From a virus, in IMG/VR virus record IMGVR_UViG_3300004481_000286, positions 1-40,546 of that record: DNA of 40,546 bases. One strand, written 5' to 3'. Position numbers and translations under genes: made by a program. Under the pieces are notes generated by a model that did no database searches, was not told the origin of the DNA, and saw nothing but the letters and a program-made list of their open reading frames with translations. The stretch's first letter is position 1; each line of letters opens with the position of its first letter. Shown piece by piece: positions 7,338 to 22,184 of the stretch.

Positions 7338-7657
7338 GACATCTCAAACCGCAGCAGTTTTGCTTGATCCTCTAGAGCTTTAATGGCGACGCTTAGGTTG
7401 CCTTTATCTCGTGCCAATCGCTCGTAATCCTGCAGTCGCGCTAGTGCAGCTTGCAGCCATTGCGGACGTTCTAGTTCCGAATCAAGGGCAATCAGCTTAC
7501 GCGCTTCAGCCATGTAATCCCGCACTTGGCGTTCACTGACGCCCCATAGCTCGGAACCGTGCTGAACAATTTGATTATGGCTGTGAGCACGCAGGATGAG
7601 GTCATAAACCACGTTGACGCGGTTCTGAATCTCATCCTTAGTGCTTTTCTTGGCCAT
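7334..7657 (-). CDS. terS: terminase small subunit (candidate)
   Basis: 107 aa and helical or HTH-like (GVSERQVRDYMAEARK). It lies immediately upstream of TerL and is translationally coupled to it. The assignment rests on position only. Confidence 0.55.
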   Translation of the reverse strand: MAKKSTKDEIQNRVNVVYDLILRAHSHNQIVQHGSELWGVSERQVRDYMAEARKLIALDSELERPQWLQAALARLQDYERLARDKGNLSVAIKALEDQAKLLRFEMS

Positions 7658-7666
7658 GCAAACAGC

Positions 7667-8707
7667 TTACCCTTTAATCTGCACCGGCATTACGAGATAC
7701 GTTACACCATCAATGCCTGCGGGTGTTAGCACCACTGGTGTGGTTGGTGCATTTGCGGACAGGGTAATGGCTTCTGCGGGCTTGAAAGCCTTGATGCCGT
7801 CTAGCAAGTAGTGGACATTGAATGCCCAGGTGCCTTTAGCGGTGCCTTCAATTTTGAGCAGCTCTTTGCCGTTATTGGCGTCAGATTCAGCAGTGATGGC
7901 AATGGTGCCGCCTGCGGCTTCCAGCTTGACGATGGAGTTGTGAGCATCGGCGATGATGGCAACACGCTCTAGCGCACGGGTGAAGCGGTGCCGGTCAATG
8001 GTGATGGTGTGCTTGAAATCAGCAGGGATCAGCTTGGTGATATCGGGGTAGGTGCCGTCGAGGATGCGGCTGTAGATGGTGATGCCATCACCAGCGTCGA
8101 TGACGCACTGGCCACCTGCTGACGCGATGCCAACGTGACGATCCTGCAGCAGGCGCATGGTGCTGGCGGGTAGCACCAAGTCAATGCCGTCGGGGAGGTC
8201 AACCGCGTACCGCATGAGGCGGTGCCCGTCGGTGGCCTCCATGTGGCCGTTGGCAAGGTGAATGCCTTGCAGCAGGGCTTTGCTTGCATCGGTGCTGGCA
8301 GCGGTCATGCAGGCGCGTACACCAGCCGATAGGGCTAGCTCAGCGCTAGGAGCCTCTACAGCAGGCATGGCGGGGTAATCCGCTGCATCCTGGGCCGCAA
8401 GCCCGTAGGAGCCGCTGGAAGCCGTCAGACCTCCATCGTGCAGCGTTACAGCCTCATCGGCATCCATGCGGCTCACAAGGCCCGCCAGGAGCCTGTATGG
8501 CAGCGCTACGGCGCCTTCAGTGTCAACCACGGCTGGCGCGGTAACGGTGATGCCAAGGTCCAGGTTGAATCCGGTGACGGACATGGTGCCGCCTGCGGCT
8601 TGGATCAGGCAGCAGTCAAGAATCGGGTGTGTGCTGCGGACGCCAATGGCTGGCGCAATAGTGCGCAAGGCGTTGTCGAGATCAAATTGACAGGTTGTGA
8701 ATTGCAC
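7667..8707 (-). CDS. dnaN: DNA polymerase III beta sliding clamp (DnaN) homologue
   Basis: The ORF is open from 8839. DnaN-like sequence starts about at QFTTCQFDLDNALRTIAPAIGVRSTHPILDCCLIQAAGGTMSVTGFNLDLGI and ends ...TYLVMPVQIKG. The GTG at 8707 gives a canonical M-x-F N-terminus. The ATGs at 8785 and 8839 would add a Pro/Ser/Ala-rich extension and overlap the DUF3310 gene. Confidence 0.82.
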   Translation of the reverse strand: MQFTTCQFDLDNALRTIAPAIGVRSTHPILDCCLIQAAGGTMSVTGFNLDLGITVTAPAVVDTEGAVALPYRLLAGLVSRMDADEAVTLHDGGLTASSGSYGLAAQDAADYPAMPAVEAPSAELALSAGVRACMTAASTDASKALLQGIHLANGHMEATDGHRLMRYAVDLPDGIDLVLPASTMRLLQDRHVGIASAGGQCVIDAGDGITIYSRILDGTYPDITKLIPADFKHTITIDRHRFTRALERVAIIADAHNSIVKLEAAGGTIAITAESDANNGKELLKIEGTAKGTWAFNVHYLLDGIKAFKPAEAITLSANAPTTPVVLTPAGIDGVTYLVMPVQIKG

Positions 8708-8897
8708 GGTTGAGATACCAGATTGCTTTTTGAATGTCTTGGGTGCCGCCTTTGCGGTCAGCACGCCAGATGTATTTGATGGCATTGCCGCGGCAGTAGC
8801 CGGTGAACTGCTCAGGGGTGAGCGCGGCTTGGATGGCATCGATGCATTCGATGCTGCCAGCGGTGTAGTGGCTGGGATGGTTAACCGGATCAGACAC
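8682..8897 (-). CDS. DUF3310-family protein
   Basis: VNHPSHYTAGSIECIDAIQAAL...GNAIKYIWRADRKGGTQDIQKAIWYLNRAI matches the remembered DUF3310 signature (HPxHY ... KY.wR...K...D..KA..Y). The likely GTG start at 8897 overlaps the upstream stop. Upstream in-frame ATGs exist, up to 9008. Confidence 0.72.
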   Translation of the reverse strand: MSDPVNHPSHYTAGSIECIDAIQAALTPEQFTGYCRGNAIKYIWRADRKGGTQDIQKAIWYLNRAIHNLSI

Positions 8898-9353: not shown

Positions 9354-9710
9354 CGGACGCTAAAACCCGCATGAATACTGGGTTCGGACGCAAGCGGACG
9401 CAAGTCGGACGCAAAAAACCCAGTCATACCAACGATGGACGCAAAAAGGGCATTTCCCCTATCCCCCCCCTACGTAATTAAATGTTCACCCCGTTACACT
9501 TCCCACCTCTCTGTAAATACCTGATTTGATTTACCCCTATTTGCGTCCGAAGAGGTGAAAAGGTAGATAGAGACAGGGATCTTGCGTCCGAAATTTGCGT
9601 CCGACTAGCGTCCGATCGGACGCAAGTTGCGTCCGAAATCATGTCCACTGATCCAACTTGAGACCTTTGATGAGACGCTCTCGGGTTTTGCTGGGCTCCC
9701 GTTCGGACGC
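9354..9710. promoter_or_regulatory. iteron array: 12 copies of core GCGTCCG/CGGACGC (extended yTTGCGTCCGAm); candidate replication origin and/or operator set
   Basis: Read directly. CGGACGC is at 9354, 9385, 9395, 9406, 9617 and 9704, with a degenerate TGGACGC at 9436. GCGTCCG is at 9543, 9584, 9597, 9608 and 9629. The two clusters face each other across a 9450-9540 spacer that holds a C8 tract (9463-9470), TACGTAATTAAAT and two CCCCTAT copies. Confidence 0.75.
9608..9623. repeat. perfect 16-bp palindrome GCGTCCGATCGGACGC formed by two abutting iterons
   Basis: Read directly from the sequence. Confidence 0.9.
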
Positions 9711-12014
9711 AACTTTGGGGAAGATCTGGCGCAATGCAGCCACCAGCAACCGTGGCGCCTTGACGGTGCGATCACTTGGCGGGTCCATCAGCCATCTACC
9801 AGACTGATCCAAATAACCCTCCTCTCGATACCATTCTTGCAGTGCATCCCATACGCGCCTTGTTGACACCGACGCATCGTCTTCGTAGGTCAGTCCGATA
9901 GCATCGCAGAAGTCCCATAGGTGACAGCTAGCTCTGCGAACGTCCTGCATTGCTTGACTGCCAGTTGTGTAATCAATGCCATCTGCAATGCTGATGGCCA
10001 TGCCCTCTAGCAACCAGTTAAGGAATGCAGGGCATATCTGCTGCTGGATAAAGTCGGGATCATCCTTGAGCTTGGGATCGGCTTGGATGTGGCTTGGCTC
10101 TGTAGGTGTTGCCATAAAGGTCTTACGGAACTTGAAGACATGAAACCGCGTCTCAATAGCAGCCTGCTCACCAGTAAGGGATGGATCTTTGTTGAGGTTA
10201 AAAACAAACAATGCCGAAGGAACAAACTGGGACTCCTGCACGCCTTTGAGTTCATATGACAATTCCTCGCCACTGATAGCAGCCTTTAATGATTGAAGGT
10301 TGTCAATACTGACAAATTGCGAGTTCTCACTGGACCAGTTAACCGATGCACCACGCAATGGCGCAATAGGAAACTTACGGCCTTGGTCGTATTGACGGAA
10401 GTCGGCCAGTGTACAGGAGGTGAAATTACGACTGCCGAGGGTATCACGTAGGGCGGTGCGGATGGTGTCTTTACCGTTGCTGCCCTCACCGATCATGAGC
10501 ACCGCACGAGGCCTGCCGCGTATGGCGCGGTACTTAGCTAAATCAAGGCCACTGCCAAGGATGCGCTGCAAGGTATCGCGATCATTGGGCTCTACCGCTT
10601 CAAGTAAACGCCAGAGGTGCTGGGCATTGGCTTCAGGGTCATAGTTGTAAGCAGTGACGTAGGTAAATGCCACATCGGGATCATGCGGCGCAAAGGTGAG
10701 GTCTAGTTTCTTGCCAGACCATGACCAGGACACCACGCCATTACGGCAGTTGATGGCATTGGTTGGGTTGACGGGTACTGGTTCCAGCAACCGACGCATC
10801 CACGCAAGGGCCTCATCGACATAACGCGGGCGGCGCCATGGGTAGCAAGGCTCGCCAGATTTGCCGTCTATGACGTGGATCATGGAGAGGAATGCGGCTA
10901 GCTGCGGCGCCAGCTCGTCATCAGGTTTGGCTTGGTAGTGCGTGCCGTTCCAGACATGAAGAATGCCATCAACGCAAATCCAGCGGTCGCGGGGATGCCT
11001 GAAGACATGGGCAACGGTCAGGTCAAGCCAGTCGGTGCCGGTCTTGTCATAAAGCTGCAGATTGATGACCTCGCCATCACTAGGAGCCTCTAAGCGCTCA
11101 CGCCTTGCCTTGGGCATGGGCAGCGGTGGCCGCCAACCGTGATGCCTAGCCCAGTACCAAAATGTGCCGGCATTGATGCGGTCACCACCGGATGCAGCGA
11201 TCTGAGGTAGGCCTTGCCATTGCGGGCTGTGCGCCTGCATGAGATCAATGGCCTGCTCGGCGTTATCGCAGGCTTGGATCAAACCCCAGAAGATGTTGCG
11301 ATAGATGTGATAGGTGCCAGTGCCAGGCGTGCGTGGTGGTATTGCAGCGAGTGCTTCGCGGATCTCGTCAATGCCACGATCAATAGATTCGGCGTGCCGT
11401 TGTGCGGGTTGCTCATGCTGGTAATAGGCCTCAGATGGCAATACCGCTTCGATATCAGCAACGCTGTAGCGATGGCCGGCGCTGGTAACCATGCGGCACA
11501 TGTCACCGAGACTGCCATCCGCTTCGGCGTAATAGCTGCCTGGCAGCCGCATGACACGGGATGAGTTTTTGATGCTGCGGTCGGCATCGCAGTAATCAAG
11601 CAGTCGAGCTTGGACTAGCTCCCAGTGCTGCGGGGTGATGGGATCAGCAAGCACCCAATAACTGTGGATGGACTTGCCGCCGGTATCGATTTGAAACGTG
11701 GGTTCGGGCAGGCCAAGTTCCTGCCATGCGGTGAGTTGCCATTCACGAGGCCGATCATCCCATTCGGCAAAGAATGCGCGGCAGGCAGTGATTTCAGCAT
11801 TGGTATCACCGCCGTCATTGATGACGACATAAACGCCGCGGCCCTCGGCTTGCCACTGCTTGATCAGCGGCTTGCGGGCGCCACCCTTGCGGCCTTTGTC
11901 GGATGCCTTGTCTTGGTGCTCTTTGTGAAGAAAGGCACGCAGCCTGATGGTGCCTGCCGGTTTGCCGAGTAGGGCAATAAACCGACGGGCTTCTGAAAAG
12001 TCAATTTCCTTCAC
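9639..12014 (-). CDS. bifunctional primase-polymerase (AEP) / SF3 helicase (P4 alpha / D5-like primase-helicase)
   Basis: 791 aa. The N-terminal AEP motifs are FFAEWDD and TGGKSIHSYWVL. The C-terminal P4-family Walker A is MIGEGSNGKDT, with downstream helicase motifs. Confidence 0.88.
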   Translation of the reverse strand: MKEIDFSEARRFIALLGKPAGTIRLRAFLHKEHQDKASDKGRKGGARKPLIKQWQAEGRGVYVVINDGGDTNAEITACRAFFAEWDDRPREWQLTAWQELGLPEPTFQIDTGGKSIHSYWVLADPITPQHWELVQARLLDYCDADRSIKNSSRVMRLPGSYYAEADGSLGDMCRMVTSAGHRYSVADIEAVLPSEAYYQHEQPAQRHAESIDRGIDEIREALAAIPPRTPGTGTYHIYRNIFWGLIQACDNAEQAIDLMQAHSPQWQGLPQIAASGGDRINAGTFWYWARHHGWRPPLPMPKARRERLEAPSDGEVINLQLYDKTGTDWLDLTVAHVFRHPRDRWICVDGILHVWNGTHYQAKPDDELAPQLAAFLSMIHVIDGKSGEPCYPWRRPRYVDEALAWMRRLLEPVPVNPTNAINCRNGVVSWSWSGKKLDLTFAPHDPDVAFTYVTAYNYDPEANAQHLWRLLEAVEPNDRDTLQRILGSGLDLAKYRAIRGRPRAVLMIGEGSNGKDTIRTALRDTLGSRNFTSCTLADFRQYDQGRKFPIAPLRGASVNWSSENSQFVSIDNLQSLKAAISGEELSYELKGVQESQFVPSALFVFNLNKDPSLTGEQAAIETRFHVFKFRKTFMATPTEPSHIQADPKLKDDPDFIQQQICPAFLNWLLEGMAISIADGIDYTTGSQAMQDVRRASCHLWDFCDAIGLTYEDDASVSTRRVWDALQEWYREEGYLDQSGRWLMDPPSDRTVKAPRLLVAALRQIFPKVASEREPSKTRERLIKGLKLDQWT

Positions 12015-12187
12015 TTCACCACCAATGATCCAGTGGAGGGCAGGATGCCATCGCTGTGCAGTCGGATCGACTGATCCAGCAGCAGCCGGATGGCGGCACT
12101 GCGAGACAAAGTGTCACCACGCCAAGAATCCAGCCATTGCAGCTGATTTGGCGCAAGGCGCAGCGGTATTGGTCGGGCTAGCGGCAT
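12011..12187 (-). CDS. ribbon-helix-helix DNA-binding protein (candidate regulator of the divergent promoter region)
   Basis: The ATG at 12187 gives MPLARPIPLRLAPNQLQWLDSWRGDTLSRSAAIRLLLDQ, an RHH pattern. The stop overlaps the primase start. The track start at 12211 is a TTG. Confidence 0.55.
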   Translation of the reverse strand: MPLARPIPLRLAPNQLQWLDSWRGDTLSRSAAIRLLLDQSIRLHSDGILPSTGSLVVK

Positions 12188-12203
12188 TGGGTCCGGCCAG
12201 TGG

Positions 12204-12239
12204 CTTGACAAGTGTATACGGTTAGTCTACGGTGTCAAG
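12204..12239. promoter_or_regulatory. back-to-back divergent sigma-70-like promoters built on a 7-bp inverted repeat CTTGACA/TGTCAAG
   Basis: Plus strand: TTGACA (12205-12210), N17, TACGGT (12228-12233). Minus strand: TTGACA (12238-12233), N16, TACACT. The two -35 boxes are the arms of the inverted repeat. A GTATAC palindrome lies in the centre. Confidence 0.5.
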
Positions 12240-12255
12240 GCACGCGGCACCCATC

Positions 12256-12411
12256 ATGGAAACCACGCGACACCACGAAGAATTGATTGAAACTTTAGAG
12301 CGCATTGCCCAAGCCCTTGAGTGCATTCAAGACAGGCAAGGCGTGATTGCAAATGCGCTGCTGCAATTATCCGATCACCACGGCAGCAAGGTGCCAGGAC
12401 CGTACCGATGA
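12256..12411 (+). CDS. 51-aa hypothetical protein, first gene of the rightward arm (absent from the ORF track)
   Basis: My own translation is METTRHHEELIETLERIAQALECIQDRQGVIANALLQLSDHHGSKVPGPYR. Its stop shares an ATGA overlap with the next gene's start at 12408. Confidence 0.45.
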   Translation: METTRHHEELIETLERIAQALECIQDRQGVIANALLQLSDHHGSKVPGPYR

Positions 12412-14666
12412 CCTACCAAGACTTCCTAGCTTCAAAATCAACTGCCGCACCTGTTGCGGGGTTTGACCCGCAGGGGTTTACGGCGCCGCTGTTTCCGTTT
12501 CAGCGGGACATCGTGACCATGGCGTGCCGCGTCGGCAAGTTCTGCATCTGGGCCGACTGCGGCATGGGCAAAACTGCCATGCAGCTTGAGTGGGCGCATC
12601 AGGTGCACCTAGAAACCGGCGACAACGTGCTTGTGTTGGCGCCGCTTGCGGTAGCCCACCAGACCGTGCGTGAGGGCAGCAAGTTCGGCATCCCATGCCA
12701 GTTTGCGGCAACGCAAGCTGAGGTGAAGCCCGGCATCACGGTGACCAACTATGAGAAGTTGGCGCATTTTGACGCCGGCAGTTTTGCAGGTGTGGTGCTG
12801 GACGAGAGCAGCATCCTCAAGTCATACACGGGCAAGACCCGCAACCAGATCATCGAGTCATTTGCGCAGACGCCATACCGGCTGGCGTGCTCAGCTACGC
12901 CAGCGCCCAATGACCACATGGAGCTAGGCAATCATGCCGAGTTCATTGGGGTCATGACGCGTACTGAGATGCTGGCCATGTTCTTCGTGCATGACGGCGG
13001 CGACACCGCTAAATGGCGCCTTAAGGGTCACGCGCAAAGCAAGTTCTGGGAGTGGGTGTGCAGTTGGGCGGTGACGATCCGCAAGCCATCGGATCTGGGC
13101 TATGACGATGGCGACTTCGTGCTGCCAGCGCTGCAGATCCAAGATTGCACGGTGGAGACACCACGCGAGGCGGTCGCTGATGACGCAGGCCAGATGGCGT
13201 TATTTGCCATGGAGGCCCGCAGCCTTAACGATCAGCGCAAGGTGCGTAAGGCAAGCCTGCAATTGCGGGTTGACGCTGCAGCACAGCTTGCCAATAGCAA
13301 CGGTGAGCAGTGGCTGGTGTGGTGCGATCTCAATGATGAGAGCAAAGCGCTGACTGCTGCTATTGCTGGCGCTGTCGAGGTGTGCGGCGCTGATAGTGAT
13401 GACCATAAGCGGCAAGCGGCCATCGACTTTCAAGATGGCAAAATCCGCGTGCTGGTCAGCAAGCCCAGCATCTTTGGGTTTGGCCTGAACTTCCAGCGGT
13501 GCCACAACGTGGCATTTGTTGGGCTGAGTCATAGCTACGAGGCGTTCTATCAAGCCATCCGTAGGTGCTGGCGGTTTGGCCAGCAGCAACCAGTTAATGC
13601 GCACATCATCTACGACGTAGGCGAGGGTCGCGTGATTGAAAACATCCGCCGCAAAGAAGCGGACAGCATCCAAATGGCCCAATCAATGGTTGAAATCATG
13701 AAGCAACAAACCATGGAACAACTCAAAAAGATTCAGCGCCAAGTGGCACCGCATGTCACTGAGCACAAGTCCGGCGACAACTGGGACATGTACATGGGCG
13801 ACTGCGTGGAGAGCATTAAACAGCTTGACTCAGACAGCATCCACTACAGCATCTTTAGCCCGCCGTTTGCGTCGCTGTACACCTACAGCAATAGCGACCG
13901 TGATATGGGCAACAGCCGCACCAATCAGGAGTTCTTCGATCACTTTGTATTCCTGGCTAAGGAGCTGCATCGCGTGATGATGCCTGGCAGGTTGATTAGC
14001 TTCCACTGCATGAATCTGCCTAGCAGTAAAGAACGCGATGGCTTTATTGGTGTGAAGGACTTCCGTGGTGACATGCTGCGCATTTTCCAGGCTGCAGGAT
14101 TTGTATTCCATAGCGAGGTGTGCATCTGGAAGGATCCAGTCACCGCGATGCAGCGCACCAAAGCCATTGGCCTGCTGCATAAGCAAGTGCGCAAGGACTC
14201 AGCGCTTAGCCGCCAGGGCATCCCGGACTACCTGGTGACCGTGCGCAAGCTGGGCGACAACCCGGAGCCTGTCGCTGGACCGTTCACGGAGTTTGCAGGC
14301 GAGAATCCACCACCCAAAAGCAAGGATCCGATTAAAGACTCGATCAACATCTGGCAGCGGTATGCCAGCCCGGTTTGGATGGACATCAACCCATCGGATA
14401 CGCTCCAGTACCGCAGCGCACGAGCTAATGAGGATGAGCGCCACATCTGCCCGCTGCAGCTTGAGGTGATCCGTCGCGGCCTGCAGCTATGGAGCAACCC
14501 AGGCGACCTGGTGCTGTCGCCATTTGCCGGCATCGGCAGCGAGGGCTATTGCAGCCTGCAGATGGATCGCCGGTTTGTCGGCTTTGAGCTGAAACCGTCC
14601 TATTACAACTGCGCCGTGAAGAACCTGACGGAAGTTGCCAGCAATAAGCAGGGGGTGCTGGTGTGA
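12408..14666 (+). CDS. SNF2/SF2 helicase fused to beta-class N4/N6 DNA methyltransferase (SPPF catalytic motif, probably N4-cytosine type)
   Basis: Helicase motifs are ADCGMGKT (I), VVLDESS (II), CSATPAPND (III), and a C-lobe VLVSKPSIFGFGLNFQ...QAIRRCWRFGQ. Methyltransferase motifs are IHYSIFSPPF (IV), HICPLQLEV, and VLSPFAGIGSEG (I) in the PF01555 order. The likely ATG at 12408 is coupled to the upstream ORF. The track start at 12321 gives an Arg/Cys-rich, unlikely N-terminus. Confidence 0.88.
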   Translation: MTYQDFLASKSTAAPVAGFDPQGFTAPLFPFQRDIVTMACRVGKFCIWADCGMGKTAMQLEWAHQVHLETGDNVLVLAPLAVAHQTVREGSKFGIPCQFAATQAEVKPGITVTNYEKLAHFDAGSFAGVVLDESSILKSYTGKTRNQIIESFAQTPYRLACSATPAPNDHMELGNHAEFIGVMTRTEMLAMFFVHDGGDTAKWRLKGHAQSKFWEWVCSWAVTIRKPSDLGYDDGDFVLPALQIQDCTVETPREAVADDAGQMALFAMEARSLNDQRKVRKASLQLRVDAAAQLANSNGEQWLVWCDLNDESKALTAAIAGAVEVCGADSDDHKRQAAIDFQDGKIRVLVSKPSIFGFGLNFQRCHNVAFVGLSHSYEAFYQAIRRCWRFGQQQPVNAHIIYDVGEGRVIENIRRKEADSIQMAQSMVEIMKQQTMEQLKKIQRQVAPHVTEHKSGDNWDMYMGDCVESIKQLDSDSIHYSIFSPPFASLYTYSNSDRDMGNSRTNQEFFDHFVFLAKELHRVMMPGRLISFHCMNLPSSKERDGFIGVKDFRGDMLRIFQAAGFVFHSEVCIWKDPVTAMQRTKAIGLLHKQVRKDSALSRQGIPDYLVTVRKLGDNPEPVAGPFTEFAGENPPPKSKDPIKDSINIWQRYASPVWMDINPSDTLQYRSARANEDERHICPLQLEVIRRGLQLWSNPGDLVLSPFAGIGSEGYCSLQMDRRFVGFELKPSYYNCAVKNLTEVASNKQGVLV

Positions 14667-16012
14667 TGCACCTCCGCCCTTACCAACAACAACTGATCAC
14701 CGACATCCGGCTGCAATACCAGCTAGGGCGTAAGGCAGTCCTAGCAGTGCTGCCGACCGGCGGCGGCAAGACCGTGTGCTTTAGCTACATCGCCGAGCAA
14801 GCCGCCAAAAAGGGCAACCGCGTGCTGGTGCTTGTGCATCGGCAGGAGCTTCTAGATCAAGCCAGCAGGGCGATGGCCGTACCCCATGGCCGCATCAGCG
14901 CCAGCCGCAGCATGGACTTGTCCTACGCCGTACAGGTGGCATCAGTCCAAACCGTAGCCCGGAGATTGCACCTGCTGCCGCGTGACTTCTTTCAGCTGCT
15001 AGTGGTTGACGAGGCCCACCACACCACCGCCGGCACATGGGCCAAGGTCATCGAGCACTTTGCAGCTGCCAAGCTGCTAGGCGTCACCGCAACGCCGATA
15101 CGCGGTGACGGTCGCGGCCTAGGTGAGCACTACCAAGCGATGGTGGAAGGTCCAACTGCGCAGCAGCTGACGGATGACGGATTCCTCGCTGCGGCCAAGG
15201 TGCTAGCACCGCCGGGGTTTGACTCAGCCGGCTTGCGTAAGCGGATGGGTGATTTCGACACCAAGCAAGCCGAGCAGCGCGTCGGCACGATCATGGGCGA
15301 CTGCCTTGGCCATTACCGCAAACACCTGCTAGGCCAGACAGCGATTGCCTTCTGCTGCTCAGTGGCCCATGCTGAGGCGGTAGCTGCCTTGTTCCAGTCG
15401 GCTGGTATCGCCGCGGCCAGCATCGATGGCAGCATGGATGCCGGCACTAGGCGGGAGCTACTCAGCGACCTCGGCACCGGTCGGCTCAAGGTGCTGACCA
15501 GTTGCGCGCTCATCGGTGAAGGCGTGGACGTACCAAGCGTTGGCGGCTGCATCCTGCTGCGGCCTACGGCATCAGTGGCATTGCACCTGCAGATGATTGG
15601 CCGTTGTTTGCGCCCACAACCTGGCAAGCGTGCGGTAGTGCTGGATCATGTCGGCAACACACTGCGGCTTGGCCACCACCTAGAGCCGCGTGAGTGGACG
15701 CTGGAGGGGCTAAAGAAGCGCGACCGCGACGCAGCCCCATCGGTCAAGGTGTGCCCTACATGCTTTGCCACCAGCATCAGCACTGCGCAGGCGTGCCGCG
15801 AGTGCGGGCATGTGTTCGCGCCACCAGAGCGCAGGGAGTTGCGGCAGGTTGATGGTGAGCTGGTGGAGGTGGCGGCACGTGAGCGCAAGCGAGAGCAAGG
15901 TTCTGCGCAGTCGCTGGATGATCTCCGCGAGCTAGCACGTCAGCGACGCTATAAACCTGGTTGGGCGGAGCGGGTTTACCAGGCGCGACTGGCTAAGCGT
16001 TACGGAATGTGA
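14666..16012 (+). CDS. DEAD/DEAH-box SF2 helicase (type III restriction Res-like / XPB-like) with C-terminal zinc ribbon
   Basis: LPTGGGKT, VVDEAHH, GVTATP, the helicase C-lobe, then CPTCFATSISTAQACRECGH. It shares a TGATG overlap with the upstream gene. Confidence 0.85.
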   Translation: MHLRPYQQQLITDIRLQYQLGRKAVLAVLPTGGGKTVCFSYIAEQAAKKGNRVLVLVHRQELLDQASRAMAVPHGRISASRSMDLSYAVQVASVQTVARRLHLLPRDFFQLLVVDEAHHTTAGTWAKVIEHFAAAKLLGVTATPIRGDGRGLGEHYQAMVEGPTAQQLTDDGFLAAAKVLAPPGFDSAGLRKRMGDFDTKQAEQRVGTIMGDCLGHYRKHLLGQTAIAFCCSVAHAEAVAALFQSAGIAAASIDGSMDAGTRRELLSDLGTGRLKVLTSCALIGEGVDVPSVGGCILLRPTASVALHLQMIGRCLRPQPGKRAVVLDHVGNTLRLGHHLEPREWTLEGLKKRDRDAAPSVKVCPTCFATSISTAQACRECGHVFAPPERRELRQVDGELVEVAARERKREQGSAQSLDDLRELARQRRYKPGWAERVYQARLAKRYGM

Positions 16013-16022
16013 CCGGCTACGG

Positions 16023-16050
16023 TTGCGCATGGCGGCAGATGGTGTATTGT
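16023..16050 (+). promoter_or_regulatory. possible internal promoter TTGCGC-N16-TATTGT
   Basis: Read in the 79-bp gap after the helicase gene. It is a hexamer match only. Confidence 0.25.
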
Positions 16051-16091
16051 TAGGGGACAGCGGACAAGAGCCGCACCCCAAACCGAGAACC

Positions 16092-16274
16092 ATGACCCTC
16101 CAGCAAGTCCTTCAGTTCAAAGCCGCCGAGAAGGCCGCCAAAGACGCTTTCTACGCCGCAGCCGGTCCCGCAGGCAGCAAGGTGACCGCTAAGCAAGCCA
16201 AGCTGCACGCAGCCATGGTGGCAGCTACCAAGGCTCGCCAAGCAGCAATGACCGCTTACGCCGATACCCTCTGA
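16092..16274 (+). CDS. 60-aa Ala/Lys-rich helical protein
   Basis: The internal ATG of ORF 16023-16274 gives MTLQQVLQFKAAEKAAKDAF.... It abuts the next gene's start. Confidence 0.45.
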   Translation: MTLQQVLQFKAAEKAAKDAFYAAAGPAGSKVTAKQAKLHAAMVAATKARQAAMTAYADTL

Positions 16275-16868
16275 GTGCGCGTCTTAGTTGCCTGCGAGTA
16301 CAGCGCCCGCGTCCGCGATGCATTTCGTAGGCGCGGGCACGACGCGTGGAGCTGTGACCTGCTGGAATGCGAGGTTGACCCGCAATGGCACCTGCAGCAA
16401 CCGGTTGAGGAGTTGCTAGGTGATGGCTGGGATCTGATGGTGGCGCGCCCGCCTTGCACCCATCTGGCCGTTTCTGGCAGCAGGCACTTTCACCGCAAGC
16501 AACAGCAGCAGGTTGAGGCCTTGGACTTTGTGCGGCTGCTGATGGCGGCACCAATAGATAGGTGGTGCATCGAAAACCCGGTCAGCATCATCAGCAGTGC
16601 CATCAGGCCACCTAGTCAGATCATCCAGCCGTGGTGGTTTGGCCACGGCGAAACCAAGTCAACGTGCTTGTGGCTGAAGAACCTACCGCTGCTAAAGCCA
16701 ACGCAGGTGGTTGATGGGCGTGAGGCCAAGGTGCATCGGATGCCGCCGGGGCCTAACAGGTGGAAAGAGCGCAGCCGTACATATATAGGCGTGGCCGATG
16801 CCATGGCGCAGCAATGGGGAGCCGTTACGCTGCCCGCACCGGTTGAGCAGCTAAGCCTTGGCATCTGA
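16275..16868 (+). CDS. minimal C5-cytosine-methyltransferase-like protein (PC and ENP motifs, no obvious target-recognition domain)
   Basis: 197 aa with a GTG start. MRVLVACEYSARVRDAF is a degenerate motif I position. ARPPCTHLAVSG is the motif IV Pro-Cys. CIENPV is motif VI. SRTYIGVADAMAQQWG is the C-terminal motif. It resembles a short phage family usually labelled DNA cytosine methyltransferase (from memory). Confidence 0.65.
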   Translation: MRVLVACEYSARVRDAFRRRGHDAWSCDLLECEVDPQWHLQQPVEELLGDGWDLMVARPPCTHLAVSGSRHFHRKQQQQVEALDFVRLLMAAPIDRWCIENPVSIISSAIRPPSQIIQPWWFGHGETKSTCLWLKNLPLLKPTQVVDGREAKVHRMPPGPNRWKERSRTYIGVADAMAQQWGAVTLPAPVEQLSLGI

Positions 16869-17208
16869 ACAGTCCATCCAGCAACACATCCGCATAGCCT
16901 GCTCAACCGGCAATACCAGGCTCTTCCGCAATAACACCGGCACGCTCAAAGACCAGCACGGCAGGCCGGTGCAGTTTGGCCTGTGCAAAGGCAGCGCCGA
17001 CCTCATCGGCTACCGGAGCATCACCATTACCCCCGACATGGTGGGCCAGCAGGTGGCGGTATTCACCAGCATCGAGGTGAAGACGCCAACCGGCAGGCTC
17101 AGACCCGAGCAGCAGGCATGGATGGATACGGTCCAGGCGGCAGGCGGCATTGCAGGCGTGGCACGGTCAGTTGAGGACGCGTTGCGGATTGTGACTGCAC
17201 AGGGTTGA
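16858..17208 (+). CDS. VRR-NUC domain nuclease (PD-(D/E)XK)
   Basis: GSADLIGY...VFTSIEVKTPTGRLRPEQQAWMDTVQAAGGIAGVARSVEDA matches the VRR-NUC D...EVK...Q..W pattern. It has a TTG start because there is no upstream ATG. Confidence 0.78.
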   Translation: MASEQSIQQHIRIACSTGNTRLFRNNTGTLKDQHGRPVQFGLCKGSADLIGYRSITITPDMVGQQVAVFTSIEVKTPTGRLRPEQQAWMDTVQAAGGIAGVARSVEDALRIVTAQG

Positions 17209-17780: not shown

Positions 17781-17977
17781 GCGAATCCGACATCTACTGG
17801 ACCTTTGTTACCGCCAGCAAGTACGCCGGCAGTTTTTACCAAGCAATGGGCAATGCTGGCCTCGCCGCTGACCCCAACAACAAGCGCCGCATCCTGCAGG
17901 CATTCCCTGAGATGGTTGCCACCTATGGCACTGCCAGCAGGTTGCATCAAACCATGCGCAGCGGGATAGCGGCATGA
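17777..17977 (+). CDS. hypothetical protein
   Basis: The internal ATG of ORF 17651-17977 gives MSESDIYWTFVTASKYAGSFYQAMGNAGL.... It is coupled to the genes on both sides. Confidence 0.5.
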   Translation: MSESDIYWTFVTASKYAGSFYQAMGNAGLAADPNNKRRILQAFPEMVATYGTASRLHQTMRSGIAA

Positions 17978-18753
17978 ACAGCAACGCCGAATACCACGCC
18001 GACCCAGCCATCAGCGCCAGCCACCTCAAGGCGGTGATGCAATCGCCTTACCACTACTGGAGCCGGTATGTAGACCCGCGGCGGCCAGTGGTTGAGCCAA
18101 CCGCAGCAATGCGGCTGGGCAGCCTCGCCCATTGCGCAGTGCTGGAACCTGATGAGTTGCTGCAGCGCTATGGCGTTTGCGGTCCACGCAACACCAAAGC
18201 CGGCAAAGAGCAGGCTGAGCGCATGGCCGCTGATGGCATTGAGGCTGTCACCAACACCGACATGGCGCTAGCCCTCAGCATGGCCGCCAGTGTCCGCCAG
18301 CATCCATACGCTGCCGCACTGCTAGCTGATGGCAAGGCTGAGCAGTCGTTCTGGTGGGATGACAAGGCAACCGGCCAGCGTTGCAAGTGCCGGCCTGACT
18401 GGTATCAAGGCACCACCATCGTGGATCTCAAGACCTGCCAGGACGCAAGCCCTGGCGCCTTTGCCCGCGCTTGCGCCACCTTCGGCTATCATACGCAGGC
18501 CAGCCACTACCTCAACGGCACATTTGCGGATCGGTTTGTCTTCATCGCAGTGGAGAAGACCTACCCGTATGCCGTTGGCGTGTACGAGCTGGATGCTGAC
18601 GCCATGGCCACTGGTGCTGAGCAATGCCGCATTGGCTTGCAAACCATCAGCGACTGCCGTGCCATCAATGAATGGCCGAGCTACACCACCACCTGCGACA
18701 TCATCGCAATGCCCAAATGGGCGCTATCTACGACCCCAACTATTGACTTCTGA
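17974..18753 (+). CDS. PD-(D/E)XK recombination exonuclease (RecE C-terminal / DUF3799-like)
   Basis: 259 aa. The motifs are YHADPAISASHLK, GSLAHCAVLEP, KCRPDWY...IVDLKT and FIAVEKTYPYAVGVYEL. It lies directly upstream of recT. Confidence 0.78.
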   Translation: MNSNAEYHADPAISASHLKAVMQSPYHYWSRYVDPRRPVVEPTAAMRLGSLAHCAVLEPDELLQRYGVCGPRNTKAGKEQAERMAADGIEAVTNTDMALALSMAASVRQHPYAAALLADGKAEQSFWWDDKATGQRCKCRPDWYQGTTIVDLKTCQDASPGAFARACATFGYHTQASHYLNGTFADRFVFIAVEKTYPYAVGVYELDADAMATGAEQCRIGLQTISDCRAINEWPSYTTTCDIIAMPKWALSTTPTIDF

Positions 18754-19520
18754 TGAGCACACTTGCCCTCTGGACACCAGAGCAGACGCAGCTAATTTCC
18801 ACCACCATCGCCCCAGGCTGTAGTACTGATGAGCTGCGGCTGTTTGCCTACGCCTGCCAGCGCACCGGCTTAGATCCGTTCAGCAAGCAGATCTACGCCA
18901 TCAAGCGTGGCGGCAAGATGACCATTCAAGCCGGCATTGACGGCCTGCGCAGCATTGCGGAGCGCACTGGCCAGCTTGACGGATCCGAAACTTATTGGTG
19001 CGGAGAAGATGGCCAATGGACTGATGTATGGCTTGGCAGCAAGCCACCTGCAGCAGCCAAAACCATCTTGCACCGCAAAGGCGCTAACCATCCGTTCGTA
19101 GGCGTCGCCCGCTTTGCTGATTACAACGCCGGCCAAGGCCTTTGGTCCAAAATGCCCGCAGCGATGATCGCCAAATGCTCCGAGGCCCTGGCGCTCCGCA
19201 AGGCATTTCCTGCTGACCTCAGCGGCGTCTACAGCACTGATGAGATGGATCAGGCAGTTGAGCCGGTGACGGTAACCGCAGCACCTGCGCCGGCACTGCC
19301 CGCCAAGGCGGCAGGTGATGCAAAGGTATTTCAGGCCGGCAAGGTAGCGATTGCCAAGGCTGATACGCTCACCAAGCTGCAGGAAGTTACCAAACGCATG
19401 GAAACCCGCAAGGGTGACCTAAGCGATGAGCAAAACCAGCAGTTGCTTGAGCTGGCGCTAGCTAAGGAGTCAGAGCTAGCAGCGCCCGCCAACGAAGAGG
19501 ATCCGTTTGCCGATGACTGA
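18753..19520 (+). CDS. recT: RecT-family single-strand annealing protein
   Basis: GLDPFSKQIYAIKRGGKMTIQAGIDGLRSIAERTGQ... and WSKMPAAMIAKCSEALALRKAFP are classic RecT motifs. Confidence 0.88.
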   Translation: MSTLALWTPEQTQLISTTIAPGCSTDELRLFAYACQRTGLDPFSKQIYAIKRGGKMTIQAGIDGLRSIAERTGQLDGSETYWCGEDGQWTDVWLGSKPPAAAKTILHRKGANHPFVGVARFADYNAGQGLWSKMPAAMIAKCSEALALRKAFPADLSGVYSTDEMDQAVEPVTVTAAPAPALPAKAAGDAKVFQAGKVAIAKADTLTKLQEVTKRMETRKGDLSDEQNQQLLELALAKESELAAPANEEDPFADD

Positions 19521-19737: not shown

Positions 19738-19943
19738 CTGAACCGTATCTCACAACTGACCAACTGGCGGCACGTTGGGGGCTAAAGCCAGCAGCCATCA
19801 AAAACCAACGCGCACGCAACATCGGACCTAGCTACTACACAATCCCGCGTATCGGCTTCCCTGCTGGTACGCCACGGGTGCGGTATCCACTAGCCCAAGT
19901 CCTGGCCTTTGAAGAGGCCAATTCCATCACCCCACTTAACTGA
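19734..19943 (+). CDS. small helix-turn-helix DNA-binding protein (excisionase/MerR-like HTH)
   Basis: MTEPYLTTDQLAARWGLKPAAIKNQRARNIGPSYYTIP.... It shares an ATGA overlap with the upstream ORF. Confidence 0.5.
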   Translation: MTEPYLTTDQLAARWGLKPAAIKNQRARNIGPSYYTIPRIGFPAGTPRVRYPLAQVLAFEEANSITPLN

Positions 19944-19944
19944 C

Positions 19945-20292
19945 ATGAGTCTTTACGCAACTGGCATCGTTCGCTTGATTACTGAGCCAACAATGCGCAC
20001 CTTTGACAGCGGCACTGTTGTCACCAACTTCGCTGGTGGTATTCAAGAGGGCAAAGATAAAGATGGCAATTGGATTAACAATGCCATCGACTGCGAAGTA
20101 TGGGGCAAGTCTGCTGAGCTGATTGTCGATAAACTCAAGAAAGGCGACAGCATCCTGATAACAGGTGCCATCCGCCGGCAAGAATGGAGCGACAAAGAAA
20201 CTGGCGCCAAGCGCAGTAAGCACATCCTGAGCATTCAGCGGTTTGAGTTCATGCCCCGTGGCGCGGTTGCTAGCGAGGAGGCAGTGTTCTAA
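19945..20292 (+). CDS. ssb: single-stranded DNA-binding protein (OB fold)
   Basis: MSLYATGIVRLITEPTMRTFDSGTVVTNFAGGIQE...CEVWGKSAELIVDKLKKGDSILITGAIRRQEW is a typical SSB pattern. Confidence 0.78.
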   Translation: MSLYATGIVRLITEPTMRTFDSGTVVTNFAGGIQEGKDKDGNWINNAIDCEVWGKSAELIVDKLKKGDSILITGAIRRQEWSDKETGAKRSKHILSIQRFEFMPRGAVASEEAVF

Positions 20293-21212: not shown

Positions 21213-21447
21213 ACGCATCCGCAATCGCACGTTAAATATCCGCGTGACAGATGATGAAATTGCACTAGCCCGCAAGCTAGGAAATGGCAACGCATCACAT
21301 GGATACAGGTTGGCGATACGTTACATGGCGGATCGCTCCATTCGCGGCATTCCGCTTAGTACAATGCTCCGGGCTGCAGCGCAAATGGCTGCTGAGCTTG
21401 AAGGCACGCCTAAGCACGGCAGGACACCCACCACCAGACCTCAATGA
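21202..21447 (+). CDS. ribbon-helix-helix-like DNA-binding protein
   Basis: RTLNIRVTDDEIALARKLGNGNASHGYRLAIRYM is an RHH pattern. Confidence 0.45.
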   Translation: MIPKRIRNRTLNIRVTDDEIALARKLGNGNASHGYRLAIRYMADRSIRGIPLSTMLRAAAQMAAELEGTPKHGRTPTTRPQ

Positions 21448-22001
21448 CAATTCTCTCGGATCACGAAATCTTCAGCCTGATCAATGACGGCATGGTGCAA
21501 AACCATCACCGCGACCTGATCAATCCCGCCAGTCTGGACTTGCGGCTTGGCAATTTGATCATGCTTGAATCGGTGTCATCGCATCAGATGATCCCATTGG
21601 ATATCGGCCAATACACCGTTGATCGTCCTTACGAGTTGGTGCCAGGGCAATTCATCTTGGCGCAAACCATGGAAACGTTCAATATGCCAGAAGATATCGC
21701 GGGGTTGTTTTTTCTTAAGTCAAGCCGCGCACGAGAGGGCTACGAAAACCTGCACGCCGGTTACGCAGATCCAGGGTGGCATGGCAGCACGTTAACGCTT
21801 GAGCTAAAGAACGCCCGCCAACTGCAATCGCTGCCGCTCTATCCGGGCCTAAAGATTGGGCAGATGGTGTTCTTCCGCATGAGCAGCAAGCCAGCGATTA
21901 GTTACGCCGATGTGGGTCACTACAACAACGATGCGATGGTGTCACCCTCCAAGCAATTCCCTAGCAGCGTCGAGATGCCAGGCCTGGATGCTGCCGCATG
22001 A
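21444..22001 (+). CDS. dcd: dCTP deaminase (dUTPase superfamily)
   Basis: MTILSDHEI...INPASLDLRLG...ELVPGQFILAQTMETFNMPEDIAGLFFLKSSRAREG...GYADPGWHGSTLTLEL is a canonical Dcd pattern. Confidence 0.88.
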   Translation: MTILSDHEIFSLINDGMVQNHHRDLINPASLDLRLGNLIMLESVSSHQMIPLDIGQYTVDRPYELVPGQFILAQTMETFNMPEDIAGLFFLKSSRAREGYENLHAGYADPGWHGSTLTLELKNARQLQSLPLYPGLKIGQMVFFRMSSKPAISYADVGHYNNDAMVSPSKQFPSSVEMPGLDAAA

Positions 22002-22184
22002 TGATATTGCCTCTTGCGTCAACCAATGAATTTGCGACCGCTGGCTGGCTTCAGCCTCAGCCAACAGCAGCGCATATTCCAGCAACCCATTCATGTCGCC
22101 GCGTTTATGCAGTTCGCGCAATGCACTTGCGTTGGCAGCACCATGGAATTGTGCTTCCATTGTGTGAACCAGCGGGATCATCAT
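21942..22184 (-). CDS. opposite-strand small ORF in the dcd-sigma gap (hypothetical; extent uncertain)
   Basis: MEAQFHGAANASALRELHKRGDMNGLLEYALLLAEAEASQRSQIHWLTQEAI looks helical and protein-like. By my own count its third-position GC is higher than that of the competing plus-strand ORFs 21998-22195 and 22014-22208. The last 20 codons are antisense to dcd. Confidence 0.3.
   Translation of the reverse strand: MMIPLVHTMEAQFHGAANASALRELHKRGDMNGLLEYALLLAEAEASQRSQIHWLTQEAISSCGSIQAWHLDAARELLGG

Follow-up and report, generated by a model that had tools for sequence, protein, structure and literature searches.

The region from 12408 to 17208 on the plus strand of the window, by which we mean the whole 40,546-nt stretch of IMGVR_UViG_3300004481_000286, is best read as the front of the replication-recombination arm of a Synechococcus-type siphovirus. 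On this reading it would consist of three functional units which have only their direction of transcription in common. We consider it likely that the five genes, here labelled P1 to P5, represent a cyanophage replication-recombination module accompanied by two independently mobile orphan genes for self-methylation, which would act against restriction. What the analysis shows is the identity of the domains, the conservation of catalytic motifs and the fact that the parts are distributed independently of one another; every enzymatic activity is inferred.

Table 1. Predicted genes of the region and of its surroundings in the window
Feature	Position	Strand	Remarks
Primase/D5-type helicase, divergent	9639-12014	-	D5_N and DUF5906 (Pfam); PHROG primase families
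P1: SF2 helicase/PF01555 methyltransferase fusion	12408-14666	+	752 aa counted from ATG
P2: RadD-like DEAH SF2 helicase, C-terminal zinc ribbon	14663-16012	+	449 aa
P3: Ala/Lys-rich protein without assigned function	16092-16274	+	60 aa; travels with P4
P4: minimal C5-cytosine-methyltransferase-fold protein	16275-16868	+	197 aa
P5: VRR-NUC PD-(D/E)XK nuclease	16858-17208	+	116 aa
DUF3799 PD-(D/E)XK exonuclease (exonuclease VIII-like)	17974-18753	+	Pfam DUF3799 2e-34; PHROG 412 7e-86
RecT-family single-strand annealing protein	18753-19520	+	Pfam RecT 2e-32; PHROG 2780 2e-62
Single-stranded DNA-binding protein (SSB)	19909-20292	+	PHROG 44 4e-15

All five open reading frames of the first-pass annotation proved to be real, with matching coordinates (Table 1). 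Its description of overlapping stops and starts holds for P1/P2 (4 nt) and P4/P5 (11 nt), while in the ORF map P3 only abuts P4 and a gap of 79 nt separates P2 from P3. The rightward series does not begin with P1, contrary to the earlier description, since a 59-aa ORF precedes it at 12232-12411. The tight packing at the two overlaps and the lineage-conserved order are compatible with co-expression and leave room for physical interaction; a scan of the region for promoters and terminators gave an outcome no better than chance. Upstream of P1 lie a beta-clamp homologue and the divergent primase. The primase/D5-type helicase gene forms the left border of a variable slot holding P1, and it is found at the same position in S-LBS1 and three other relatives (L007, L020, and L021). 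The DUF3799 exonuclease is syntenic in relatives, where SSB comes after RecT.

Judged from its sequence, P2 would serve the module as its helicase for replication and recombination. A DEAH helicase with a zinc ribbon had been proposed, and this is confirmed by Pfam matches to ResIII (2e-30) and Helicase_C (4e-15) and by the DEAH and CxxC...CxxC motifs read in the sequence. The best solved structure is RadD (PDB entry 6JDE, 1e-29), aligned with P2 residues 3-368 of 449, a stretch that runs through the helicase core and ends where the zinc ribbon begins. RadD is longer (586 aa), and P2 scores 127 bits against the NCBIfam RadD model, far under the equivalog cut-off of 720 bits. Thus, P2 is RadD-like and not an orthologue. 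Matches to P2 are observed in 2390 phage records. ORF33 of Lactobacillus phage A2, a temperate siphovirus, shares 36.6% identity over 98% of the P2 length; its gene is flanked by that of the annealing protein Sak4 on one side and by SSB/primase on the other.

P5 is probably a Holliday-junction or branched-DNA resolvase. Its call as a VRR-NUC nuclease stands above the Pfam cut-off (1e-10; 42 vs 23.8 bits), and PHROG 5702 'Holliday junction resolvase' is matched at 2e-14. Annotated resolvases are among its homologues, namely A2 ORF37 (2e-16) and gp39 of Pseudomonas phage PPpW-3 (1e-22), and its D...E-V-K residues align with the active-site segment of FAN1. It is set apart from these nucleases as a stand-alone protein of 116 aa. 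The order in A2 is Gam, Sak4, P2-like helicase, SSB, primase, origin and P5-like resolvase, and PPpW-3 has a similar module with P2 and P5 homologues. No methyltransferase is found in the replication module of either phage.

These modules bear on the reading of the region as an island of four coupled enzymes. Under it, the five products would form a single ATP-dependent modification/restriction-like machine, with translocating helicases, methyltransferases that label self DNA and a VRR-NUC nuclease that cuts unmarked competing or host DNA. We regard such a machine as highly improbable, although the tight packing with overlapping stops and starts and the order preserved in the immediate lineage would suit it, and phage Jersey has genes of these three types next to one another. 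The P2 core also resembles the helicases of Type IV and Type I restriction enzymes (PADLOC mREase_IV, 1e-39; SauUSI, PDB entry 7CLG, 6.5e-22), but RadD outscores every restriction enzyme as a match to P2, and P2 has no nuclease domain. Besides the homologues of P2 and P5 in methyltransferase-free modules, the gene neighbourhoods speak against a fixed unit, as relatives show the parts in every combination. Synechococcus phage S-CBS3 carries P1 while P2, P4 and P5 are not beside it, and five relatives (L013, L014, L016, L019, and L020) retain P2-P4-P5-exonuclease-RecT with P1 absent. In P1-less relatives the slot is occupied by an IbrA/IbrB-like cassette, an SF1 helicase, unknown genes, or nothing, and the replacements include a putative DNA-modification pair. 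The cyanophage S-LBS1, published in 2018, has a split P1, P2 and VRR-NUC in the same order with an unrelated ORF at the place of P4, and in S-H1 this place is taken by a classical PF00145 methyltransferase. The full P1-P5 order is found in metagenomic relatives, and the arrangement, for which the first-pass annotation knew of no characterised example, does have precedents. Since the parts assort independently, the coupled island is unsupported.

The likeness to the parts list of restriction and defence systems does not extend beyond generic cores. Defence models match the helicase and Type II methyltransferase cores and nothing more; in PADLOC, P4 and P5 have no match and P1 matches generic Type II methyltransferase models alone. 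Type III restriction-modification (EcoP1I/EcoP15I Mod and Res) likewise combines a PF01555-type methyltransferase with a ResIII-type helicase. However, P2 is without an endonuclease domain, the methyltransferase of the window is fused to its own, different motor, and the parts are separable in relatives. No Type III model is among the listed PADLOC or NCBIfam matches. Of the anti-restriction roles suggested earlier, self-methylation is plausible for two of the five genes, P1 and P4, whereas the single coupled system is not upheld.

P1 is, as far as its sequence indicates, an accessory orphan methyltransferase in the hypervariable slot between the primase and P2. Its N-terminus is an SF2 (SNF2-like) ATPase/translocase of ~450 aa and its C-terminus a beta-class PF01555 amino-methyltransferase (Pfam Helicase_C, 1.4e-7; ResIII, 6e-6; N6_N4_Mtase, 6e-14); PHROG families are matched as well. 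The fusion, PF01555 and SPPF described earlier are all present, while the label 'SNF2-type' is less secure, with SNF2-rel_dom at E = 0.004, below the cut-off, even though motif VI looks SNF2-like. Seven P1 homologues show no variation in helicase motifs I, II, III, and VI. In the methyltransferase, FAGIGS forms motif I and SPPF, read directly in the sequence, forms motif IV, the latter being kept in seven of the eight family members examined. The nearest solved structures are TTHA0409 (SPPY) and M.PvuII (SPPF), a named N4-cytosine enzyme. These neighbours agree with SPPF as an N4-cytosine-type signature, and the base modified by P1 is probably N4-cytosine, SPPF alone being an unreliable guide to base specificity. 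In beta-class amino-methyltransferases, the enzyme's own recognition domain sits between motifs IV and I. This stretch has ~210 residues in P1, so the absence of a specificity subunit leaves no gap.

Matches to P1 are present in 412 phage records, and in 306 of these one place covers at least 80% of the P1 length, either fused or split into neighbouring genes; many of them bear the annotation 'DNA helicase/methylase'. This family includes S-CBS3 gp40 (annotated 'DNA methylase'), gp65 and gp66 of Mycobacterium phage Ramsey, gp73 of Arthrobacter phage Gorpy and proteins of Flavobacterium columnare phages. They have the same architecture as P1, fused or in two adjacent genes, with 31-84% identity over at least 93% of the length, and keep the ATPase motifs and SPPF; P1 shows no essential difference from them. 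The copy in the window is a further member of an already recorded phage family, 84% identical in amino acids to S-CBS3 gp40. No experimental characterisation of the family was found in the searchable literature.

BLASTP detected no similarity between our P1 and DarB of phage P1, to which the region had been compared (best E = 0.07). On computational grounds, it has been proposed that phages and plasmids join an SF2 motor to a methyltransferase in order to counter restriction (PMC5512222). Like our P1, both DarB and the polyvalent proteins' 'DNA methylase-helicase dyad' (Iyer et al. 2017, PMC5512222) combine a methyltransferase with an SF2/SNF2-like motor, and the proposed role, translocation-coupled methylation for counter-restriction, is a further likeness. 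However, DarB is a virion-packaged protein of 2255 aa that works in cis on the injected DNA, and it comprises LPD36, a gamma-class NPPY adenine methyltransferase and a C-terminal helicase. In our P1 the order of the domains is reversed, the methyltransferase is of the beta class with SPPF, and LPD36 is missing.

Alternatively, P1 could be mainly a replication/recombination motor, whose methylation would mark new phage DNA for internal use (replication timing, strand discrimination, or packaging) and not for restriction escape. In every lineage examined, the neighbours of the P1-type gene are replication and recombination genes, and it follows an annealing protein and HNH in Ramsey, SSB and RdgC in Pseudomonas Hollowayvirus, and the primase in cyanophages, and its ATPase motifs are invariant. 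But P1 is dispensable at the slot, and several methyltransferases are often stacked in one phage, such as Flavobacterium phage mymlan6-1 and Ramsey, which makes this alternative unlikely. The presence or absence of P1 in close relatives and its exchange for unrelated cassettes therefore point to accessory counter-defence behaviour and not to a core replication factor.

P4 is a promiscuous stand-alone phage gene whose product has a predicted C5-cytosine methyltransferase fold. No Pfam family is matched, including PF00145, and profile searches of PDB sequences returned nothing. A C5-methyltransferase-like protein of ~197 aa is nevertheless well supported by PHROG 757 'DNA methyltransferase' (1e-67) and by a confident AlphaFold model (pLDDT 95.3), for which all 50 listed PDB matches are C5-cytosine methyltransferases, including DNMT3A/3B, M.HaeIII, M.HhaI, and DNMT1 (Foldseek E = 2e-6 to 1e-4, TM ~0.5). 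P4 shares the predicted fold of these listed matches and the PC and ENx motifs with M.HhaI, M.HaeIII and the DNMT3A/3B catalytic domain, from which it differs by its ~190-197 aa, non-canonical motif I and scant target recognition domain, almost none being present. Among the 50 listed PDB chains that it matches, only two are no longer than P4, and the longer ones span 263-1027 residues. Both PPC (motif IV) and ENP (motif VI) are conserved; in motif I, C-E-x-S-G stands instead of FxGxG. Its kin are the small 'Dcm-like' phage proteins of PHROG 757, for example gp37 of Salmonella phage Jersey, which has a sub-threshold PF00145 match over motifs I-IV.

Lacking the canonical FxGxG and a PF00145 match, P4 could be a degenerate, inactive fold that binds DNA, serves to decoy or inhibit host systems, or carries out some other chemistry. 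Its small size, near-absent recognition domain and empty PDB sequence searches would agree. We nevertheless judge inactivity quite unlikely. Residues D28, H39, C61, E100, P119, and K128 are invariant, and among 79 diverse members the catalytic Cys of PPC, ENP and the acidic D28 and D53 at the motif II/III positions are invariant or nearly so. The family, which comprises 5903 clusters at 50% identity, is 62-91% identical across many phage backgrounds under strong purifying selection, and a classical C5 methyltransferase takes its position in S-H1.

Homologues of P4 (62-88% identity) occur on 80 IMG/VR contigs. Of these, 12 have P2 in the vicinity, 7 have P5, and 5 have the P1 helicase domain, four of the last together with the methyltransferase domain. 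Neighbours at these 80 loci are heterogeneous and non-repeating, helicase genes being the commonest single neighbour (12/80). P4-like folds are also found inside giant proteins containing helicases, and in phage Jersey VRR-NUC, a P4-like gene and an SNF2 helicase lie side by side. Given these observations, P2 and P4 may be functionally linked. P3 has no family match in Pfam or PHROG. Its copies, 59-82% identical, directly adjoin the P4 homologue in five relatives (L013, L014, L015, L019, and L023), even in L015 where P2 and P5 are absent, and this conservation bears out the 60-aa Ala/Lys protein as a real gene.

In the explanation that we prefer, P2, P5, the DUF3799 exonuclease, RecT and SSB would form the core of recombination-dependent replication. 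Exonuclease and RecT would make and anneal single strands, P2 would remodel or branch-migrate forks and joints, and P5 would cut Holliday junctions or branches, rendering concatemers packageable. P4, probably with P3, would be a second, separately mobile orphan enzyme adding 5-methylcytosine with short or relaxed specificity. P1 would unite an intact ATP-driven SF2 motor with a beta-class amino-methyltransferase equipped with a recognition region of its own, and the motor may carry the enzyme along phage DNA or open access to replicating DNA. With its sites methylated fast enough by P1, the phage DNA would evade host restriction enzymes.

Five rightward genes are found in the six-frame ORF list where the first-pass annotation had placed them, and its domain calls are confirmed by Pfam and PHROG scans. 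They encode a helicase–methyltransferase fusion (P1), a RadD-like DEAH helicase with a zinc ribbon (P2, helicase 2), a small Ala/Lys-rich protein (P3), a C5-methyltransferase-like protein (P4) and a VRR-NUC nuclease (P5). According to the ORF list, P1 and P2 overlap by 4 nt and P4 and P5 by 11 nt, and P3 abuts P4. The SPPF and DEAH motifs, the CxxC...CxxC ribbon, PPC and ENP of P4 and D...EVK of P5 can be read straight from the translations. The window is a siphovirus genome of about 40.5 kb, and its nearest isolates are the Synechococcus siphoviruses S-CBS3, S-H1, S-LBS1 and KBS-S-2A. Scaffold, head morphogenesis, portal and large terminase genes are located on the minus-strand left arm, as are genes for a primase/D5-type helicase and a beta-clamp homologue. 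P1–P5 belong to the rightward arm (about 12.2–23 kb), which also encodes a DUF3799 exonuclease, RecT, SSB, a dCTP deaminase and a sigma factor. Beyond it are found genes for the endolysin, tail fibre, tape measure and adaptor. Neither an integrase nor a DNA polymerase was recognised in the scanned ORFs, which are not an exhaustive set, and the lack of a polymerase among them suggests that the phage relies on the host replicase. A consensus scan of 11.8–23.4 kb gave no more promoter and terminator sites than shuffled sequence, so the placement of these genes in the earliest operon is still an assumption. The 59-aa ORF at the start of the rightward arm shows no homology to the small gene 5' of S-CBS3 gp40.

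Coordinates of the features in the window and in related viral loci
Feature	Record	Position	Strand	Source
P1, helicase–methyltransferase fusion	window	12408-14666	+	six-frame ORF list
P2, RadD-like helicase	window	14663-16012	+	six-frame ORF list
P3, Ala/Lys-rich protein	window	16092-16274	+	six-frame ORF list
P4, C5-methyltransferase-like protein	window	16275-16868	+	six-frame ORF list
P5, VRR-NUC nuclease	window	16858-17208	+	six-frame ORF list
DNA polymerase III beta-clamp homologue	window	7667-8839	-	
Primase/D5 helicase	window	9639-12014	-	
59-aa ORF	window	12232-12411		
dCTP deaminase	window	21444-22001	+	
Sigma factor	window	22183-23085	+	
P1 slot	window	12014-14663		
P1 slot	L013	4274-6901		
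P1 slot	L019	5552-8179		
P1 slot	L016	6501-8189		
P1 slot	L018	5379-7402		
P1 slot	L020	6472-7284		
P3 homologue	L013	8529-8717		
P3 homologue	L014	6825-7004		
P3 homologue	L015	6334-6522		
P3 homologue	L019	9806-9994		
P3 homologue	L023	3645-3812		
P4 homologue	L002, Methanosarcina virus MetMV	7001-7552		
Four-gene cluster	L010, Salmonella phage Jersey	3296-5903		
Methyltransferase cluster	L012, Flavobacterium phage mymlan6-1	454-4657		
NUMOD4/HNH_3 homing endonuclease	L020	8588-9214		

A comparison of the relatives shows that these genes do not travel as a unit. In S-CBS3, P1 stands alone amid small genes that are unrelated, and a RusA-type resolvase is encoded elsewhere in the genome. The order in S-LBS1 is primase (minus strand), split helicase and methylase, a small ORF, helicase 2, an unrelated 211-aa ORF, VRR-NUC, annealing protein and SSB. 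Its A46 was considered as a P4 homologue from its equivalent position and was rejected, as the alignment has 23% identity and is misaligned. S-H1 has a split helicase/methylase pair, helicase 2 and, in the place of P4, a classical PF00145 methyltransferase. Metagenomic contigs of about 38.6 kb contain the fusion, an extra 198-aa ORF, helicase 2, P4, VRR-NUC, exonuclease, RecT and SSB, with no P3. P4-related loci were searched with a 5-sequence alignment, and 80 IMG/VR loci were selected solely by the presence of a P4 homologue (62–88% identity). Among these, P2 is found near P4 in 12, the exonuclease in 8, P5 in 7 and RecT in 6. The P1 helicase domain is near P4 in 5 of the 80, four of which also have the methyltransferase domain. 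The single neighbour found most often beside P4 is a helicase, and clustering of all neighbours in the 80 loci gave no recurrent P4 partner outside the cyanophage lineage. The closest relatives (L013, L014, L016, L019 and L020) keep P2–P4–P5–exonuclease–RecT and lack P1. Since the parts are distributed independently in S-CBS3, S-LBS1, S-H1, the metagenomic relatives and the 80 IMG/VR loci, the proposal of one coupled island is not supported. Nor is the arrangement new, because the gene order is already present in public cyanophage genomes. The anti-restriction role proposed for the island is retained in part: both methyltransferases are plausible anti-restriction genes, but not as components coupled into one island. 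The region is no new kind of system: it consists of a standard module for recombination-dependent replication and two mobile orphan methyltransferase genes.

P2 contains ResIII and Helicase_C domains (Pfam scan), and its core is most like RadD (structure 6JDE, 1e-29). Assignment as a true RadD was rejected, since the NCBIfam RadD model gives 127 bits, far under the equivalog cut-off of 720; P2 is RadD-like only. P5 matches the VRR-NUC family (Pfam PF08774, 42.2 bits vs a cut-off of 23.8) and PHROG 5702, and its catalytic D...E-x-K aligns with that of FAN1. Lactobacillus phage A2 and Pseudomonas phage PPpW-3 have homologues of P5 that carry the annotation Holliday junction resolvase. The A2 genes run Gam, Sak4, P2-like helicase, SSB, primase, mapped origin and P5-like resolvase, and the PPpW-3 module resembles it. 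A methyltransferase is absent from these replication modules with P2-like and P5-like genes in A2 and PPpW-3. P2, P5, the exonuclease, RecT and SSB would act with the primase and clamp in recombination-dependent replication, and the same set would resolve branched DNA ahead of packaging.

P1 has Helicase_C, ResIII and DEAD matches at residues ~30–390 and an N6_N4_Mtase match at residues 480–737 (Pfam scan). Its 752-aa ATG start is supported by the full-length alignment to the 754-aa S-CBS3 gp40. In a tblastn search 412 phage records match P1, and in 306 of them a single place covers at least 80% of the protein. The identity is 84% to S-CBS3 gp40 and 31–45% to the actinobacteriophage members. 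With full-length similarity and the same domain order, P1 is a member of a phage helicase + PF01555 methylase family. The pair is present fused or as adjacent genes and frequently bears the annotation 'DNA helicase/methylase'; Mycobacterium phages Sparky and Coco12 and Arthrobacter phages are examples. Motor motifs I (GxGK), II (DExS), III (SATPxPN) and VI (QxxxRxxRxxQ) are invariant among the compared homologues, which came from cyanophages and from Mycobacterium, Pseudomonas and Flavobacterium phages. A relation to the SNF2 ATPases is suggested by motif VI, which is SNF2-like by eye; the PF00176 match stays below the family cut-off (E=0.004, 16.7 bits vs 24.9). In the methyltransferase half, SPPF (motif IV) and FxGxG (motif I) are conserved in the family. 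Among solved structures, the nearest to this half are TTHA0409, with SPPY and a 'putative' function, and M.PvuII, an N4-cytosine enzyme with SPPF. P1 probably targets N4-cytosine, and SPPF by itself is no proof of base specificity. About 210 residues lie from motif IV to motif I. The recognition domain of beta-class amino-methyltransferases sits between these two motifs, so P1 would need no separate specificity subunit. A literature search found no experimental studies of this fusion family; the S-LBS1 paper mentions the two helicases and the methylase of that phage without functional work (PMC6157547).

Several known systems combine such domains. A 'methylase-helicase dyad' has been described computationally with DarB of phage P1 as its archetype (PMC5512222). 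The likeness of our P1 protein to it is conceptual, a methylase joined to a helicase. In DarB an LPD36 domain is present and the methyltransferase, a gamma-class NPPY adenine enzyme, lies on the N-terminal side of the SNF2 helicase (PMC5512222), whereas P1 has the reverse domain order and a beta-class methyltransferase. With a best BLASTP E of 0.07 in addition, membership in the DarB-type dyads was rejected. Type III restriction–modification pairs Mod obligatorily with Res, which joins an SF2 helicase to a PD-(D/E)XK endonuclease at its C-terminus. P2 instead has a zinc ribbon at its end and lacks a nuclease domain, S-CBS3 has P1 but not P2, L013–L020 have P2 but not P1, and no Type III model is among the PADLOC or NCBIfam matches listed for the five proteins; this assignment was also rejected. 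Type ISP enzymes unite an Mrr-like nuclease, helicase, gamma-class methyltransferase and recognition domain in one polypeptide. They were dismissed because P1 has no nuclease domain and its methyltransferase is beta class. DISARM consists of the DrmA helicase, DrmB (DUF1998) and DrmC/DrmD with a methyltransferase, and was discarded since no Drm model is among the PADLOC matches listed for any of the five proteins. Those listed for P1 are Type II/orphan methyltransferase models and weak DpdE/DpdF helicase matches. PADLOC gave no match for P4 and P5; its other matches are all generic, to Type II methyltransferases or helicase cores.

P4 matches PHROG 757 'DNA methyltransferase' at 1e-67. No match was obtained in the Pfam scan, PF00145 included, or in PDB sequence searches with the single sequence and two profiles, and an hhalign comparison between the P4 family and a single classical C5 methyltransferase gave a probability of 1%. 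A further homologue search from a mixed alignment returned the same close relatives and no added diversity. The family comprises 5903 clusters at 50% identity, mostly of 180–250 aa, in a search of 1.84 billion cluster representatives. AlphaFold reached a pLDDT of 95 from 79 diverse representatives, vs 49 from a shallow alignment of 78–91% identical sequences. All 50 PDB matches listed for the model are C5-cytosine methyltransferases (probability 1.0, E down to 2e-6), including DNMT3A/3B, M.HaeIII, M.HhaI, DNMT1 and MET1. The PPC cysteine, ENP and acidic residues at the motif II/III positions are invariant or nearly so in the 79-member alignment. In place of FxGxG, motif I reads C-E-x-S-G, and a recognition domain is all but missing. 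Jersey gp37, a distant family member, scores 20.1 bits with PF00145 vs a cut-off of 22. Because of the model matches and the conserved PPC and ENP residues, P4 is read as a C5-methyltransferase fold, predicted to be minimal and DNMT3-like. No experimental work on minimal phage C5-like proteins was found in a literature search. The family appears to span bacterial and archaeal viruses with unusually high conservation. A homologue with 68% identity is found in Methanosarcina virus MetMV, near PAPS-reductase-like and DNA-methylase genes. In Flavobacterium phage mymlan6-1, three PF01555 methyltransferases and a P4-like gene lie within about 4 kb, a case of phage methyltransferases stacked together.

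P3 has no Pfam or PHROG match. It is kept at 59–82% identity, directly adjoining a P4 homologue, in five metagenomic relatives, and is therefore a real gene. In one of these (L015) it stands beside the P4 homologue without P2 or P5, so P3 may be a partner of P4. The P4 model also matches two BFVD proteins of uncultured Caudovirales, A0A6J5SE15 (1397 aa) and A0A6J5NPY6 (1126 aa), in which the P4-like fold is a domain. One of the two is named 'Helicase/UvrB, N-terminal'. These predicted models suggest a second kind of methyltransferase-like/helicase fusion. Salmonella phage Jersey, an unrelated enterobacterial siphovirus, has VRR-NUC next to a small ORF, a 227-aa P4-like 'C-5 cytosine methylase' and an SNF2 helicase; the gene types are those of P5, P4 and the helicase, but in another order. 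In view of the helicase adjacency, the Jersey cluster and the P4-like folds in giant proteins that contain helicases, P2 and P4 may be functionally linked.

The P1 slot, bounded by the primase and helicase 2, is hypervariable when close relatives are compared. It is occupied in L013 and L019 by a PAPS_reduct+DUF3440 protein and a cupin/ParB_N protein, a putative IbrA/IbrB-like DNA-modification pair. An SF1 helicase (AAA_30/UvrD_C_2) is found there in L016 and genes without assigned function in L018 and L020, and the slot is empty in L014. In L020 a homing endonuclease lies between helicase 2 and the P4 homologue.

We propose that P1 would be an accessory motor-assisted amino-methyltransferase, probably N4-cytosine-specific, whose methylation would shield phage DNA from host restriction. 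P4, probably with P3, would be a second enzyme, cytosine-5 methyltransferase-like and independently mobile, that by itself recognises little sequence. A less likely and more novel reading takes the two as distinct phage enzyme classes standing side by side. One would be a motor-driven N4-cytosine methyltransferase, made processive on incoming or replicating phage DNA by its SF2 translocase. The other would be the ~190-aa C5-methyltransferase fold without a recognition domain, which may methylate cytosines at minimal sequence specificity. Alternatively, this fold may depend on a partner, either the small P3 or a helicase, the latter in view of the helicase adjacency and fusions. If both were true, this phage lineage would hold two mechanistically new self-protection enzymes, and no known DNA C5-methyltransferase would be smaller than the P4 family.

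The helicase–PF01555 fusion and the minimal DNMT3-like protein are two abundant families that merit focused biochemical study. To be cautioned, helicase, methyltransferase and nuclease genes together in a phage early region need not mean a restriction-like machine. In this lineage the primase-adjacent slot is an exchange site for varied DNA-modification and helicase cassettes. Restriction–modification systems are abundant in cyanobacteria, and thus such methyltransferase genes may influence the host range of cyanophages.
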